64,000 nucleotides of DNA from the NCBI GenBank assembly GCA_002842855.1, contig PHEE01000007.1:1139-65138 (forward strand). Reading direction: 5' to 3'. Under the pieces are notes generated by a model, which was not told where the DNA came from, searched no databases, and worked only from the letters and a program-made list of their open reading frames with translations. The DNA is from Alphaproteobacteria bacterium HGW-Alphaproteobacteria-4 (GTDB taxonomy: Bacteria; Pseudomonadota; Alphaproteobacteria; Rhodobacterales; Rhodobacteraceae). Positions 16,412 to 50,000 of this stretch are shown here, in pieces (the first letter of the stretch is position 1; each line of letters begins with the position of its first letter). Made by a program: the position numbers and the translations under genes.

Positions 16412-17248
16412 GACGATCATCACCTGCGCCATCACCGGCGCGATCCATACACCAACGATGTCGGATGCGCTGCCTTATACGCCCGACGACATCGCAGCGC
16501 AGGCGATTGCGGCGGCCGAGGCGGGGGCGGCGATCTTGCACCTGCACGCGCGCCGCCCGGCCGATGGCGGGGTCTCGATCAACCCCGATGATTTCGCGGC
16601 TTTTCTGCCGCGTGTGAAACAGGCGACGGGGGCGGTGGTCAACATCTCGACCGGTGGCAGCCTGAAGAACACCATCGAGGAGCGGATCGCCCCGGCGCTG
16701 CGCTTTTCGCCCGAGATGTGCAGCCTCAACATGGGCTCGATCAATTTTTCCTTCCACCCGCTGGCCAAGCGCTATGACACCTGGAAGTTCGACTGGGAAA
16801 AGGACTATGTCGAAAACTCGGACACCTACATTTTCCGCAACACCTTCCGCGATATCGGCACCGTGGCCGCGGCACTCGGCCCGCATGACATCAAGTTCGA
16901 GCATGAATGCTACGATGTCGGGCACCTCTACAACCTGCGTTTCTGCATGGATATCGGGCTGTTCAAGGCGCCCATCTTCATTCAGTTCGTGTTCGGCATT
17001 CTGGGCGGCATCGGCCCCGAGGTCGACAACCTCGTGTTCATGAAGCGCACCGCCGACCGGTTGTTTGGCGATGATTACCGCTGGTCGGTGCTGGGTGCGG
17101 GTGGCGCGCAGATGGGTTGGCGCCCAACAATGCCGCGCAAGTCGCCAAGATCCGCCGGATCATCGAAGACCTGGGCTGTGAGGTGGCCAGCCCCGATGAA
17201 GCCCGCGAAATTCTAGGGCTGAAGGGGGCAGACAGGGTTTCGTTCTAA
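16395..17248 (+). pseudogene. 3-keto-5-aminohexanoate cleavage enzyme family (BKACE/DUF849) gene with internal deletion and frameshift
   Basis: The N-terminal 240 aa are BKACE-like (TCAITGA, ILHLHAR His-x-His). After ...GAGGAQMG (about 17115) the frame yields junk. The conserved C-terminus LAPNNAAQVAKIRRIIEDLGCEVASPDEAREILGLKGADRVSF-stop continues in another frame (17117..17248). The (V/I)RVGLED segment expected between the two parts is absent. Confidence 0.8.
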
Positions 17249-20912: not shown

Positions 20913-23041
<2,129 letters not shown>

Positions 23042-23046
23042 AGCCG

Positions 23047-24814
23047 ATGCCCGGCACACTCGATCTGGAGCCGTGGGAGCCAGAAGAAACCGTAGGCAAG
23101 CTCTGGCACGCCTATGCAAGCCGCCTTGATGCGCCGCGCCTCCACCCCGAAGCTCAGGTCGATCTGGCCGAGATCGGCGGGCGGCTCGCGGTGCTGTTTC
23201 GCGGCCTTGGTGGCAGCCCCGAGGTCGAAATCAAGCCTGCCGCTGATGCACCAAGCGGGCACCGGCTGTCGCTGCGGCGCAGGTTGGGCGCTGCGGTCGA
23301 GCGCCTGCCGAGCGCAAGCTTTGATGGCGCAGCCCTGCGGCTGCCCGAAAGCCTTGCGGTGTTTCCCATGCGCGAGGCGAATGCGGCGCTTTATCTGTGG
23401 CTTGCCGCTGCTGCGGCACATGCGGGACCGCGCCGCGACGAGGCAGACCCGCTTTGTGCCTGATGCCGAGCGCACCGTTGAAGCGGTGATCCGGCATCTG
23501 CTGGGCGACCCTGCGCCGCTTCCGGCCAAGGCGCAGCGCATGCGCGCGGCAGTTGCTTCGGGTGATTTCGCGCCCTATCGGGCGCCACGCGGCTACCGCC
23601 CGTTCCGGCCGCCCGCACTTTGGCCGACGCTCGGCGCGCTGGCGTTTTCGGCGCAGACGGCGGTCGAAACCCGCGCCACCGAAGGCACCCCCGAGCAGGG
23701 CGAGGGCAGCACCAAGACGCGCCGCGCCCGGCGCCGCAAGGCCGATCAGGCCGAACGCAACGACAGCTTCATTCTGCACAAGTTCGAGGCGATCCTGAGC
23801 TGGGCAGAATTCATCAACCTTAACCGCAGGGTCGAGGATGACGAAAACGATGATGCCCGCAAGGCGGCGGATGACGTTGATGAAATCGGCCTCGGGCAGA
23901 TTTCCAAGGCGCCCGCCACGCGGCTGAAACTGCACCTCGATCTTGCCCCCGAAGATGTTGACCGCGAAGCGCTTTCGGGGGTGCAGCTTTACCCCGAATG
24001 GGACGTGCGCACCGGTGCCTATCTGGCCAATCATGTGCGCGTGCTCAGCTCTGACATCGAGCCCGCCACCGAGCCACCGCCCTATCTGCACGATCCGCGT
24101 GCACAAGCCCGCATCCGTGCGGTGCGGCGCCAGTTCGAGGCGCTGCGCCCGGCGCGGATGCCCACCAGCGGCCACCCCGACGGCGACGATCTTGATACTG
24201 ACCGGGCGGTGCGCGCGCAGGTCGATCTTATCGCGACCGGGCAGGGCGATGACCGCGTCTGGCGCCAAACCCGGCAGCAAAAGCGCGATCTGGCGGTGTC
24301 GATCTTGCTTGACGTGTCGCGCTCGACCGAATCGGCGGTTCCCGGGCACGGCCACGGCTGGCGCGCGGTTATTGACATCGAGCGCGAGGCGCTGGCGGCG
24401 CTTTCGTGGGGGCTCGCAGCCTGCGGCGACGATTTTGCCATCCATGCCTTTTCCTCGCTCAAGCGCGACCGGGTCTATATGCAATGCGCCAAGCGGTTCG
24501 GCGTGCCGATGTCGGCGGCGGTCGAGGCCCGCATTGCGGCGCTGCGCCCCGGCTTTTATACCCGCCTTGGCGCCGCCATTCGCCATGCCTCGGCCGGGCT
24601 GGCCGAACAGGCCCGCCGCCGCCGCCTGCTGCTGGTCATCACCGATGGCAAACCCAATGATCTGGACCACTACGAAGGCCGCCACGGCATTGAAGACAGC
24701 CACAAGGCGGTGCTTGAAGCGCGCCGCGCCGGGCATGCGGTGTTCGGCATCACCGTGGACCGCGACGGCAAGACCTGGTTTCCGCGCATTTTCGGGCAGA
24801 ACACCACCCGCTAA
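23047..24814 (+). pseudogene. norD: NorD (vWA-domain NOR maturation protein), split by a frameshift or deletion near 23452-23456 and possibly shortened at the C-terminus
   Basis: The N-part MPGTLDLEPWEPEETVGKLWH... (ORF 23038..23463) stops after ...RRDEADPLCA. Homology continues in the frame of ORF 23114..24814 from ...FVPDAERTVEAVIRHLLGDP through the vWA domain (ILLDVSRSTES MIDAS) and ends abruptly at ...FPRIFGQNTTR. Confidence 0.75.
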
Positions 24815-25038
24815 TCCGGGCGGCACATCACCCCCCCTCAATCCACTGAACTGCCGCACCTCGCGCTCTTGCCTGTCGGCATTCGCGCCCGAGCCGCATT
24901 CAGTGGGCAGCGGAAGTTCCTGAGTCCGGAAACTCCCGCCAAAGGGGGTGTCTTGCGACACAAGGTGTCCCACGGGGGGTTTTGAGATGGGGTGTGCTTT
25001 TTCTAAACCGCTGCAAAATAACGAAAACATTTGGTGGA

Positions 25039-25114
25039 TGGTAGGCCCGGAGGGACTCGAACCCCCAACCAAGGCGTTATGAGCGCCCTGCTCTGACCAT
25101 TGAGCTACAGGCCC
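25039..25114 (-). tRNA. tRNA with CAU anticodon (Met; a lysidine-modified Ile2 cannot be excluded from sequence alone)
   Basis: Reverse complement GGGCCTGTAGCTCAATGGTCAGAGCAGGGCGCTCATAACGCCTTGGTTGGGGGTTCGAGTCCCTCCGGGCCTACCA. It folds as a 76-nt cloverleaf with a 7-bp acceptor stem, GTTCGAGTC T-loop and encoded CCA. Confidence 0.9.
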
Positions 25115-26980: not shown

Positions 26981-27012
26981 GGGGTGTTTTGGCAATGAAG
27001 ACGGCGCGGAGG
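26981..27012 (+). repeat. Copy A of a dispersed ~30-nt intergenic motif (GGGGTGTTTTGGCAATGAAGACGGCGCGGAGG)
   Basis: Shares the core GGGT(A/G)TTT(T/G)(G/C)GCAATGAAGA-N-G(C/G)CG with the copies at 31207 and 37315. All three are intergenic and in the same orientation. Confidence 0.6.
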
Positions 27013-31206: not shown

Positions 31207-31236
31207 GAGGGTATTTTCGCAATGAAGATGCCGAGG
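31207..31236 (+). repeat. Copy B of the dispersed intergenic motif (GAGGGTATTTTCGCAATGAAGATGCCGAGG)
   Basis: See copy A. It lies between two minus-strand genes. Confidence 0.6.
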
Positions 31237-37314: not shown

Positions 37315-37346
37315 GGGGGGTATTTGGGCAATGAAGAAGCCGCAGG
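37315..37346 (+). repeat. Copy C of the dispersed intergenic motif (GGGGGGTATTTGGGCAATGAAGAAGCCGCAGG)
   Basis: See copy A. It lies between convergent genes. Confidence 0.6.
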
Positions 37347-46568: not shown

Positions 46569-46667
46569 GCGGCGAGGCGCGGTGCAGTTTGGCCCGCCGA
46601 CAGTCGAGACATGAACAATCTGAGAACACGTCTTGGCGGCGGCGGTGACTGGCGCTATGGTCGCGCC

Positions 46668-49151
46668 ATGAGCGAGACCCCTTCCAGCCTGCCGTTGTCC
46701 GCCCGCGCCATGGCGGCGCGCCCCGCGCCCTATCTTGACGGGCTGAACCCGGCGCAGCGCGCGGCCGTAGAGGCATTGGATGGCCCGGTGTTGATGCTGG
46801 CAGGCGCCGGCACCGGCAAGACCCGCGCGCTGACCGCGCGGATCGCGCATCTGCTGGCGCAGGGGCGGGCGCGTCCGAACGAGGTGCTGGCGGTCACCTT
46901 CACCAACAAGGCGGCGCGCGAGATGAAAGAGCGGCTGGGCCGCCTGATGGGCGAAAGCGTTGAGGGGCTGCCGTGGCTCGGCACCTTTCATGCGATCTGC
47001 GTAAAGCTGTTGCGCCGCCACGCCGAATTGGTAGGGCTGAAATCGAACTTCACCATTCTGGATACCGATGACCAGATCCGGCTGCTCAAGCAACTGATTG
47101 TCGCTGAAAACATTGATGAAAAGCGCTGGCCCGCGCGGATGCTGGCGGGGCTGATCGACGGCTGGAAGAACCGCGCCCTGACGCCCGACAAGGTGAAGGG
47201 CGCCGAGGCCGCGACGTTCAACAACTACGGCGGCGAGCTTTACACCGCCTATCAGGCGCGGCTTCGGGCGCTCAATGCGGTCGATTTCGGCGATTTGCTG
47301 CTGCACATGGTCACGATCTTTCAGACCCACCCCGATGTGCTGGCGCAGTATCAGCGCTGGTTTCGCTACATTCTGGTGGACGAGTATCAAGATACCAACG
47401 TGGCGCAGTATCTGTGGCTGCGCCTGCTGGCGCAGGGCCACCGCAACATTTGCTGCGTCGGCGATGATGACCAGTCGATCTACGGTTGGCGCGGCGCAGA
47501 GGTGGGCAACATCCTGCGTTTCGAGGCGGATTTCCCCGGCGCGCAGGTGATCCGGCTGGAGCAGAACTACCGCTCGACCGCGCATATTCTTGCCGCCGCC
47601 TCGGGCCTTATCGCGGCCAACGCAGGGCGGCTGGGCAAGACCCTCTGGACCGCCGCCGAGGGTGGCGCGAAGGTTCGCCTCATTGGCCATTGGGACGGCG
47701 AAGAAGAGGCGCGCTGGATCGGCGACGAGGTTGAGGCGGTGGCGCGGGGGGCGCGCGGGATTGACCCGATCGGCCTGAACGGGCAGGCGATTCTGGTGCG
47801 CGCCAGTCACCAGATGCGCGCCTTCGAGGACCGTTTCCTGACCATCGGCCTGCCTTACCGGGTGATCGGTGGCCCGCGCTTTTACGAGCGGCAGGAGATT
47901 CGCGACGCGATGGCCTATTTCCGCCTCGCGGTCAGCCCCGATGACGATCTGGCATTCGAGCGGGTGGTGAACGTGCCCAAGCGCGGCCTTGGCGACAAGG
48001 CGGTGCAGACGATTCAGGCGACCGCGCGCGAAGATGGCACCGGGCTTTTGGAGGCCGCCCGCTATGCGGTGGCCACGGGGCGGCTTTCAGGCCGAGGTGC
48101 CGGGCAGTTGCGCGGCTTTGTCGAAGGGGTGGACCGCTGGCACAAGGCGGTGCAGGCCGGCGAAAGCCATGTCGCACTGGCTGAAACCATTCTTGACGAA
48201 AGCGGCTACACCGGAATGTGGCAGGCCGACAAATCGCCCGAGGCGCCGGGGCGGCTGGAAAACCTGAAAGAGCTGGTGAAGGCGCTTGAACAGTTCGAGA
48301 ACCTGCAAGGCTTTCTGGAACATGTCTCGCTGATCATGGACAACGCCAGCGAAGACGCCGCCGAAAAGGTCAGCATCATGACCCTGCACGCGGCCAAGGG
48401 GCTCGAATTTCCCGCCGTGTTCCTGCCGGGGTGGGAGGATGGCCTTTTCCCCAGCCAGCGCAGCATGGACGAAGGCGGGCTGAAAGCGCTGGAGGAGGAG
48501 CGGCGGCTGGCCTACGTCGGCATCACCCGCGCCGAGTGGCTTTGCACCATTTCGTTTGCCGGCAACCGCAGGGTTTACGGCCAGTGGCAATCGGCGCTGC
48601 CCTCGCGCTTCATCGACGAGCTGCCGGCCGCGCATGTCGAGGTGCTGACCCCACCCGGCTTGTACGGTGGCGGCTTCGGAGCCGCGGCGCGGCCGACGGC
48701 TTTCGGCATCGAAGAGCGCGCTGCGCGCGCCGATGTCTATGCCTCGCCCGGCTGGAAGCGGATGCAGGAACGCGCCGGGTCGCGCCCGCTCGCGAAGCCG
48801 CGCGAGGCGCGCCATGTGGTGATCGACCTTGACGCAGTCAGCAATTTCGAGCCGGGCGAGCGGGTTTTCCATCAGAAATTCGGCTATGGCCTGGTGCGGC
48901 TGATCGAGGGTGACAAGCTGACGGTGGTGTTTGAAAAGGCGGGCGAAAAGAATGCGCGGCAGCGCCGCGAACAGTCGGGTCAACCGCGCGGCTTCAGCCG
49001 CGGTTCCCCACGGCGCATTCACGATGAACAGGCCCGAGCCGACCATGCCATGCCCTGCGCGGGCGGGGGGAAAGCGAACCTCGTGGCGCAGGGCTTCGGG
49101 GTGGTTGGCGGCAAGCGCTGCGAGCATCGGCGCGTGCGGCGCGGCAGCTAG
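46668..49151 (+). CDS. uvrD: DNA helicase II (UvrD/PcrA family); the native C-terminal tail appears replaced after residue ...FEKAGEKN (about 48953)
   Basis: Walker A AGAGTGKT, DEYQDTN and helicase motifs are colinear to ...FHQKFGYGLVRLIEGDKLTVVFEKAGEKN. The remaining 64 codons (to 49151) are antisense to rlmJ and Arg-rich junk. Confidence 0.85.
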   Translation: MSETPSSLPLSARAMAARPAPYLDGLNPAQRAAVEALDGPVLMLAGAGTGKTRALTARIAHLLAQGRARPNEVLAVTFTNKAAREMKERLGRLMGESVEGLPWLGTFHAICVKLLRRHAELVGLKSNFTILDTDDQIRLLKQLIVAENIDEKRWPARMLAGLIDGWKNRALTPDKVKGAEAATFNNYGGELYTAYQARLRALNAVDFGDLLLHMVTIFQTHPDVLAQYQRWFRYILVDEYQDTNVAQYLWLRLLAQGHRNICCVGDDDQSIYGWRGAEVGNILRFEADFPGAQVIRLEQNYRSTAHILAAASGLIAANAGRLGKTLWTAAEGGAKVRLIGHWDGEEEARWIGDEVEAVARGARGIDPIGLNGQAILVRASHQMRAFEDRFLTIGLPYRVIGGPRFYERQEIRDAMAYFRLAVSPDDDLAFERVVNVPKRGLGDKAVQTIQATAREDGTGLLEAARYAVATGRLSGRGAGQLRGFVEGVDRWHKAVQAGESHVALAETILDESGYTGMWQADKSPEAPGRLENLKELVKALEQFENLQGFLEHVSLIMDNASEDAAEKVSIMTLHAAKGLEFPAVFLPGWEDGLFPSQRSMDEGGLKALEEERRLAYVGITRAEWLCTISFAGNRRVYGQWQSALPSRFIDELPAAHVEVLTPPGLYGGGFGAAARPTAFGIEERAARADVYASPGWKRMQERAGSRPLAKPREARHVVIDLDAVSNFEPGERVFHQKFGYGLVRLIEGDKLTVVFEKAGEKNARQRREQSGQPRGFSRGSPRRIHDEQARADHAMPCAGGGKANLVAQGFGVVGGKRCEHRRVRRGS

Positions 49152-49739
49152 GATCGGATACCAGAGCGCGATCACCCCGACATTCCATTTGCGCGCCACC
49201 TTCGCGATGAACGACGGCAGCGATTCGTAATCCGCCTTTACCTCGTAGCTCGGGTCGATCAGCAACAGGCCCCGGCGCGGCGTGGGCGGGGTGATGGAAA
49301 GCGCCATCTGCAAGCCGTCGATCTGCTGAAAGATGCCGCCGTGTGGCGCCATCGTTGTTTGCAGCGCCGCGAATTCGCGCGGGTGCAGTTCGGCCAGCCG
49401 GATCGAATCGACCGGGCGCAGCAGCGCGGCCGCGATCAGCGGCGAGCCGGGGTAGGTGGCTGTGCCATGCGCCCTGCGGGTGGCAGCAAGGGCGCGGGCG
49501 TAGGGGTGGGTGGGCGCGAACCAGCCTAGCCGCTCGATCCGGGCGATGCCCTCGGCGGCCTCGCCGGTTTTCAGCGCCTCGGGGGCATCGAGCGCATAAA
49601 GCCCGCGCCCCGCGTGCGTTTCGATGTAGCTGAGCGGCTTTGGCTTGGCGGTGAGGTAGTCGAGCATGCTTGCCAGCAGCGCGTGCTTGTGCACGTCGGC
49701 CAGATTTCCCGCGTGATAGAGGTGTTGATAACTGAGCAT
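48957..49739 (-). pseudogene. rlmJ: 23S rRNA (adenine2030-N6)-methyltransferase RlmJ lacking its native 3' end and stop codon
   Basis: ATG 49739. MLSYQHLYHAGNLADVHKH hallmark, LLLIDPSYE, ...GSGLFIVNAPWG...LTRLFAALP. Beyond about 48957 the frame runs on without a stop to 48087, antisense to uvrD. Confidence 0.7.
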
Positions 49740-49800
49740 TTCGGCACTTTCCGGGTTTGCCCCGGCATGCCCCGTGGCGCGGTCCCGCGCAACCCCTGCA

Positions 49801-49876
49801 AATGAAAGCGGCGACGCCCAGGGAGGAGGAGGGGCGCCGCCGCTTGTTCCTCGGCCCCAGGGAGGAGGAGGGGGCC
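49801..49876 (-). ncRNA. CcsR-type sRNA unit 4 (distal): two hairpins with CCUCCUCCC loops plus U-rich tail
   Basis: Hairpins at 49853-49876 and 49808-49843 (12-bp stem). Minus-strand loops contain CCUCCUCCC. Followed by UUUCAUUU, so it resembles an intrinsic terminator. Confidence 0.7.
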
Positions 49877-49892
49877 TCGGGATAAGGTGCGA

Positions 49893-49959
49893 TGCCAGCC
49901 CGGGAGGAGGATGGGCGGCACCGCTGAAACGATCGGCCCGGGGAGGAGGTGGGCCTATC
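49893..49959 (-). ncRNA. CcsR-type sRNA unit 3
   Basis: Hairpins at 49931-49959 (core 49935-49955) and 49893-49920. Both loops contain CCUCCUCCC. Confidence 0.65.
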
Positions 49960-50000
49960 GCTTGTCGTTCAGGCCTTGCGGCCCGCAACCGGTTTGAAGT

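Follow-up and report, generated by a model that had tools for sequence, protein, structure and literature searches.

An apparent tail-to-tail fusion of uvrD and rlmJ is probably a local assembly error in a draft metagenome-assembled genome

The uvrD–rlmJ junction

The window (i.e. the whole stretch of 64,000 nt of DNA that was analysed) contains two convergent genes that run into one another tail to tail, with both stop codons and the entire intergenic spacer missing. The open reading frame of uvrD lies on the forward strand at 46611..49151 and encodes 846 aa, while the frame that contains rlmJ lies on the reverse strand at 48087..49988 and encodes 633 aa. The native part of uvrD occupies 46611..48952, comprising codons 1-780 and the first two bases of codon 781. 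The native part of rlmJ occupies 48954..49739 on the reverse strand and comprises codons 1-262 of 263, the start at 49739 being taken from the conspecific gene call of 263 aa.

The first 781 residues of the 846-aa frame constitute a UvrD/PcrA-type helicase (Pfam PF00580, PF13361 and PF13245; NCBIfam pcrA/uvrD). The N-terminal helicase domain with the Walker A motif (PF00580) scores 301.9 bits and the UvrD_C domain (PF13361) 213.9 bits. The NCBIfam models pcrA (756 bits) and uvrD (673-701 bits) all fall below their equivalog cut-offs, and we have therefore left the subfamily name generic. Codon 781 straddles the junction, so that AAG (Lys) becomes AAT (Asn). The 65 codons and stop that follow the junction (48953..49151) are antisense to rlmJ, and no homology was found past residue 781 in any relative.

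RlmJ belongs to the 23S rRNA m6A2030 methyltransferase family, and its domain (PF04378) scores 147.6 bits over profile positions 2-221 of 245. In the intact conspecific protein of 263 aa the match covers exactly the same span, and an unmatched end of the model is thus usual in the lineage. The family domain is thus full length relative to its orthologues, and what the window copy lacks is its own stop. The frame instead reads on for a further 288 codons (48087..48953, reverse strand), consisting of the junction codon followed by antisense uvrD, to a stop at 48087-48089. In the profile search neither of the spurious tails had a family match.

The locus in other assemblies

When the UvrD tail was used as the query in a protein search, a protein of 798 aa (P0001) was recovered, in which 780 of the 781 aligned residues are identical to UvrD of the window. 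The gene for it is present on eight contigs (JGI, ENA and NCBI), and a further look-up gave ten more places. Two of the eight contigs are from the same strain, namely L018 (JGI metagenome 3300029891, contig Ga0246100_100205) and L019 (NCBI MAG GCA_017973855.1, contig JAEMOG010000014.1). Each matches the window at 100.000% identity for 6342 nt to the left and 3906 nt to the right of the junction, and the sole difference is the presence of 149 extra nt (L019:6343-6491). These contain the last 17 codons of uvrD with its stop, a spacer of 89 nt, and the last codon of rlmJ (Ser263) with its TGA (L019:6487-6489). The junction in the window (48952..48953) is blunt and has no microhomology, and cutting the 149 nt from the JGI contig restores the sequence of the window exactly.

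The earlier note, made from the sequence of the window, had described the abutment of the two genes and the continuation of each frame as the antisense of the other, and both are borne out. It was also right to ascribe the loss of the 3′ end of uvrD, the spacer and the rlmJ stop to one contiguous segment, which is now seen to be exactly 149 nt. It had placed the break at 48953 on one strand and 48957 on the other; there is indeed a single point, but this lies at 48952|48953. The expectation that 15-25 C-terminal residues would be missing from both proteins holds for UvrD, which lacks 17, but not for RlmJ, which lacks a single residue and its stop codon.

The gene order in the intact same-strain loci is that of the window, i.e. 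ABC ATPase, uvrD, convergent rlmJ, DUF1127/ccaF1, apbC and mraZ onward. Unlike the window, these loci have a UvrD of 798 aa with its stop, the 89-nt spacer and an RlmJ of 263 aa with its stop. The 149 nt are present without gaps in all 15 of the conspecific loci that were retrieved. Their sources, which amount to at least 11 samples or assemblies, are six ENA assemblies, two JGI metagenomes, two NCBI MAGs and a Logan contig of SRR3546455, and 3-4 haplotypes are found among them.

The same arrangement is found more widely in the genus. In four other species (G001-G004) uvrD and rlmJ are adjacent and convergent, with 91-122 nt where the window has none, and the alignments of all four to the window break at one point. 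In a multiple alignment UvrD of the four species runs 17 codons further (KLLAS[FY]VV...DVPF) to its stop, followed by the spacer, and RlmJ ends one codon past ...LPR. An overlapping arrangement is therefore shared by none of the conspecific or congeneric loci.

The lost residues of UvrD form part of a recognisable domain. In comparison with solved UvrD C-terminal domains (7egt_B, 6yi2_A and 7egs_B; PF21196, the UvrD/PcrA Tudor-like domain) the intact conspecific tail aligns through ...EKAGEKKLLASF(V) and scores 25.9 bits, above the cut-off of 23.9. In the window the match ends at ...EKAGEK, leaving the domain incomplete and under the cut-off at 12.8 bits. This shortfall is a consequence of the 149-nt dropout and does not reflect the organism itself. 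Judged from these sequence comparisons, the locus in the organism is almost certainly an ordinary convergent pair, with a 798-aa UvrD bearing a C-terminal Tudor-like domain, a spacer of 89 nt and a 263-aa RlmJ.

A search of genome and metagenome contigs for the junction pattern gave no matches; near-identical records were left out of this search, and a control with the intact left flank, which does occur in a JGI contig, also gave none. The 846-aa UvrD and a 550-aa RlmJ were not on record in exact look-ups, in which near-identical records were likewise left out. A literature search on the accessions returned nothing relevant.

Four further dropouts on the same scaffold

The loss at the uvrD–rlmJ junction is one of five. 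Positions 5377-64000 of the window correspond to the JGI contig minus five segments, with no substitutions and no insertions in 58.6 kb. Dropout 1 (17117..17118; 79 nt, with 1 nt of positional ambiguity) falls inside a BKACE (DUF849) gene that encodes 310 aa when intact. Dropout 2 (21060..21061; 64 nt, again with 1 nt of ambiguity) falls inside norB, a gene of the COX1 family encoding 454 aa when intact. The next two both affect norD, the gene of 653 aa downstream of norQ; dropout 3 (23456..23457; 128 nt) lies within it and dropout 4 (24799..24800; 105 nt) at its 3′ end. Dropout 5 (48952..48953; 149 nt) is the uvrD–rlmJ junction. Dropout 1 is absent from the Logan contig SRR3546457_40237 (L026), which matches the window at 100% identity and is intact at this site. 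On the evidence of these alignments the broken nitric-oxide reductase genes (norB and norD) of the window are an artefact as well.

All five junctions are blunt, with microhomology of 1, 1, 0, 0 and 0 nt at dropouts 1 to 5. We considered deletion by slippage, and rejected it because there are no direct repeats and the microhomology is 0 nt at the uvrD–rlmJ junction and 0-1 nt at the other four. The hexamer GAAGCT occurs near both ends of the 149-nt segment and was examined as a possible slippage repeat; its use would have retained the rlmJ stop, contrary to what is found in the window.

The assembly to which the window belongs (G000) has 59 contigs, and was compared with conspecific sequences over about 102 kb in all. 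On contigs C35 and C6 two stretches of 22 kb are identical to conspecific contigs without an indel, so the dropouts are clustered, and are not found genome-wide. The missing segments were not found elsewhere in G000, for example as small contigs; only the hairpin element of the uvrD–rlmJ spacer (see below) has other copies there.

We note that a boundary between strains lies downstream of norD. At about 24980-25050 of the window the strain of ENA assembly ERZ27239240 (99.3% identical) diverges completely, and carries other genes that include one for an AAA_25 protein. This has the appearance of a strain-specific insertion or replacement boundary (L024:18993-20228 compared with L023:19980 onward).

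Breakpoints and strain variation

The contigs of G000 carry the marks of their assembly. Where contig ends match one another, the overlap is exactly 99 nt in 28 of the 36 pairs; the assembly also contains three runs of N (C58:92251-92306, 56 nt; C16:75641-75717, 77 nt; C34:6800-6830, 31 nt). Together these indicate that short reads were assembled with a de Bruijn graph, the largest k being ~99-100, and then scaffolded. Contig-end overlaps of about the largest k were noted by Chen, Anantharaman, Shaiber, Eren and Banfield (2020, Genome Res; PMC7111523). Given the 99-nt overlaps, many of the contigs of G000 could be joined.

The strains in sister samples are about 99.3% identical, and the breakpoints of the dropouts are related to the sites at which these strains vary. 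The last missing base of dropout 1 is a strain-variable site, as is the first missing base of dropouts 3 and 4, while the first missing base of dropouts 2 and 5 lies 99 nt before such a site. When dropouts of equal size are placed at random, the probability that all five would show an offset of 0 or 99 is about 5e-8, and that for the first four alone is about 1e-6. The offset of 99 was preset by the contig-end overlap of G000, and was not freely chosen. The breakpoints with offsets of 0 and 99 are the ends or starts of unitigs in a k=100 graph.

By itself, the uvrD–rlmJ dropout is only weakly tied to the graph (P about 0.035). Its offset of 99 refers to the SNP at 6442 in L019, and a further difference of the known alternative haplotype lies 40 nt closer (6401/6402), so that 6343 is a k=100 node only for a haplotype that was not observed. 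The uvrD–rlmJ junction is therefore judged mainly via its sister dropouts. Comparison with the strain-SNP map gave no recognisable graph position for the second end of any dropout, and this counts against the reading of the dropouts as assembly errors.

The junction coincides with a hot spot of strain variation, the most variable part of its neighbourhood, in which 18 SNPs occur in 549 nt (3.3%), compared with an average of 0.6-0.9% for the same pair of haplotypes. The hot spot is located at L019:6256-6688, corresponding to about 48866-49149 of the window plus the missing piece. It could be a recombination tract across the 3′ end of uvrD, the spacer and the 3′ end of rlmJ.

Origin of the junction

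We conclude that the fusion of uvrD and rlmJ is a local assembly error in a draft metagenome-assembled genome, with a probability of about 0.88, since both genes are intact in all other assemblies of the strain. Moreover, a set of five losses (64-149 nt) that strike conserved genes, unaccompanied by any point difference, is not what mutation produces. The sampled community would have contained several close strains of a Rhodobacteraceae (Phaeovulum-like) species, whose variants probably split the assembly graph into short pieces. The assembler or scaffolder would then have joined pieces directly at five places, losing the 64-149 nt between them. We infer the joining step itself; a wrong, negative estimate of the distance in a scaffold join, with clipping of one contig, has perhaps an even chance of being the correct description. 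The fused sequence is probably without read support.

Two further observations sit uneasily with an assembly error. All five errors are losses, where a noisy estimate of distance should also generate duplications, and the errors are clustered, while two other 22-kb stretches of G000 are clean.

Local assembly errors in metagenome-assembled genomes were defined by Chen et al. (PMC7111523) by the lack of perfect read support. The present case resembles theirs in that the consensus is unsupported by other data, the assembly is a scaffolded de Bruijn assembly of co-existing strains, the contig ends overlap by about the largest k, and incomplete or wrong protein-coding genes have entered public databases. 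It differs in that the error was recognised from a comparison of assemblies, and not from reads. Moreover, blunt dropouts of 64-149 nt anchored at strain-variant sites are not described in that study, and the pattern comes from the present analysis. We assign the junction to this class on three grounds, i.e. that it is absent from independent assemblies of the same strain, that such losses recur on the scaffold without point differences, and that breakpoints fall at graph positions.

The segments might alternatively have been removed after assembly, as poorly covered or flagged stretches taken out without Ns during error correction, polishing, gap closing or editing for submission. This would account for there being losses only and no duplications, and every lost piece is shorter than a typical read of 150 nt. 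The three runs of N, of 31-77 nt, indicate that some gaps were handled by estimates of size, and such genomes are at times curated with scripts that reopen regions lacking support (PMC7111523). We nevertheless regard this as unlikely. The lost pieces are of usual GC content (0.56-0.73) and a hairpin is present in only one, and the relation of breakpoints with strain-variable sites and with the 99-nt overlap indicates that the losses arose at the graph stage. In practice the verdict is the same for either route, in that the feature is not real.

The earlier note had preferred a deletion in the organism. This finds no support, since the segment is present in independent assemblies whose flanks are 100.000% identical, four more blunt dropouts occur without a single substitution, and breakpoints lie at de Bruijn graph positions set by strain variants. 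The missing segment that the note thought re-sequencing might reveal has in effect been revealed by the independent assemblies. A genuine deletion would have removed the final strand of the RNA-polymerase-binding, Tudor-like domain of UvrD and added a nonsense tail of 65 residues. Translation of rlmJ would either continue into antisense uvrD or be rescued by tmRNA, and the convergent transcripts would be without a terminator.

There are some points in favour of such an event. The deposited sequence does show the fusion, blunt junctions free of microhomology are what would be expected from end-joining repair, and the lost spacer has a GC-rich hairpin, a structure that can provoke breaks. The fall in the PF21196 score from 25.9 to 12.8 bits makes the loss meaningful if it is real. 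Nevertheless a total of five deletions (64-149 nt), unaccompanied by any substitution in 58.6 kb (102 kb if C35 and C6 are included), lies far outside normal mutation spectra. Four of the five strike conserved genes, three of those four causing a frameshift, and none of the five is present in any other assembly of the same or sister strains. Nor is there a biological rationale for breakpoints at strain SNPs or 99 nt before them. That the 149-bp deletion and the other four were carried in the population sampled for the genome is thus very unlikely. The more specific form of the idea, a sub-lineage in which a burst of end-joining followed double-strand breaks within about 32 kb, truncating the UvrD tail and fusing rlmJ, seems to us slightly less probable again.

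A functional overlap of the convergent genes, selected for its extended tails, can be practically dismissed; both extended frames are open, but in DNA of 65% GC antisense frames are often open by chance, the arrangement is confined to the window among conspecific and congeneric relatives, and the tails have neither homologues nor a family match.

With the junction read as an assembly error there is no new biology at the locus, and the organism has an ordinary convergent uvrD–rlmJ pair. The significance lies in the quality of the data. The assembly serves as the species representative, and one of its scaffolds has at least five damaged genes, namely uvrD, rlmJ, the BKACE gene, norB and (at two points) norD. 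Artefactual proteins are predicted from it, comprising a UvrD of 846 aa, an RlmJ of 550-633 aa, and split NorB and NorD. As the breakage of the nitric-oxide reductase genes is artefactual, so too is the apparently crippled denitrification island. The signature of such errors, i.e. blunt dropouts below read length, without substitutions and with ends at strain-variable sites or k-1 away, could help in screening other sequences.

A dispersed element in the uvrD–rlmJ spacer

Neither a terminator scan nor folding revealed a convincing intrinsic terminator in the spacer between uvrD and rlmJ. The GC-rich hairpin was considered in this role and rejected; the scan gave one weak candidate, which lies upstream of the hairpin, and the z-score of the fold is -1.9. 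The hairpin is part of a dispersed, intergenic REP-like element, AAATACCCCGGGGGTSCGGGGGCTGGCCCCCG, located at L019:6419-6470 within the missing 149 nt. At least seven near-full copies (C13:142, C16:62572, C19:77636, C36:19666, C40:76896, C42:69242 and C47:22871) and about 20 partial copies are present in G000.

Adjoining the GC-rich hairpin, and in the opposite orientation, the missing spacer also contains an AT-richer core GGGTATTT..GCAATGAAGA (L019:6405-6480, minus strand). The core occurs at three intergenic sites in the window (26981-27012, 31207-31236 and 37315-37346), and it and the GC-rich hairpin look like parts of one dispersed element.
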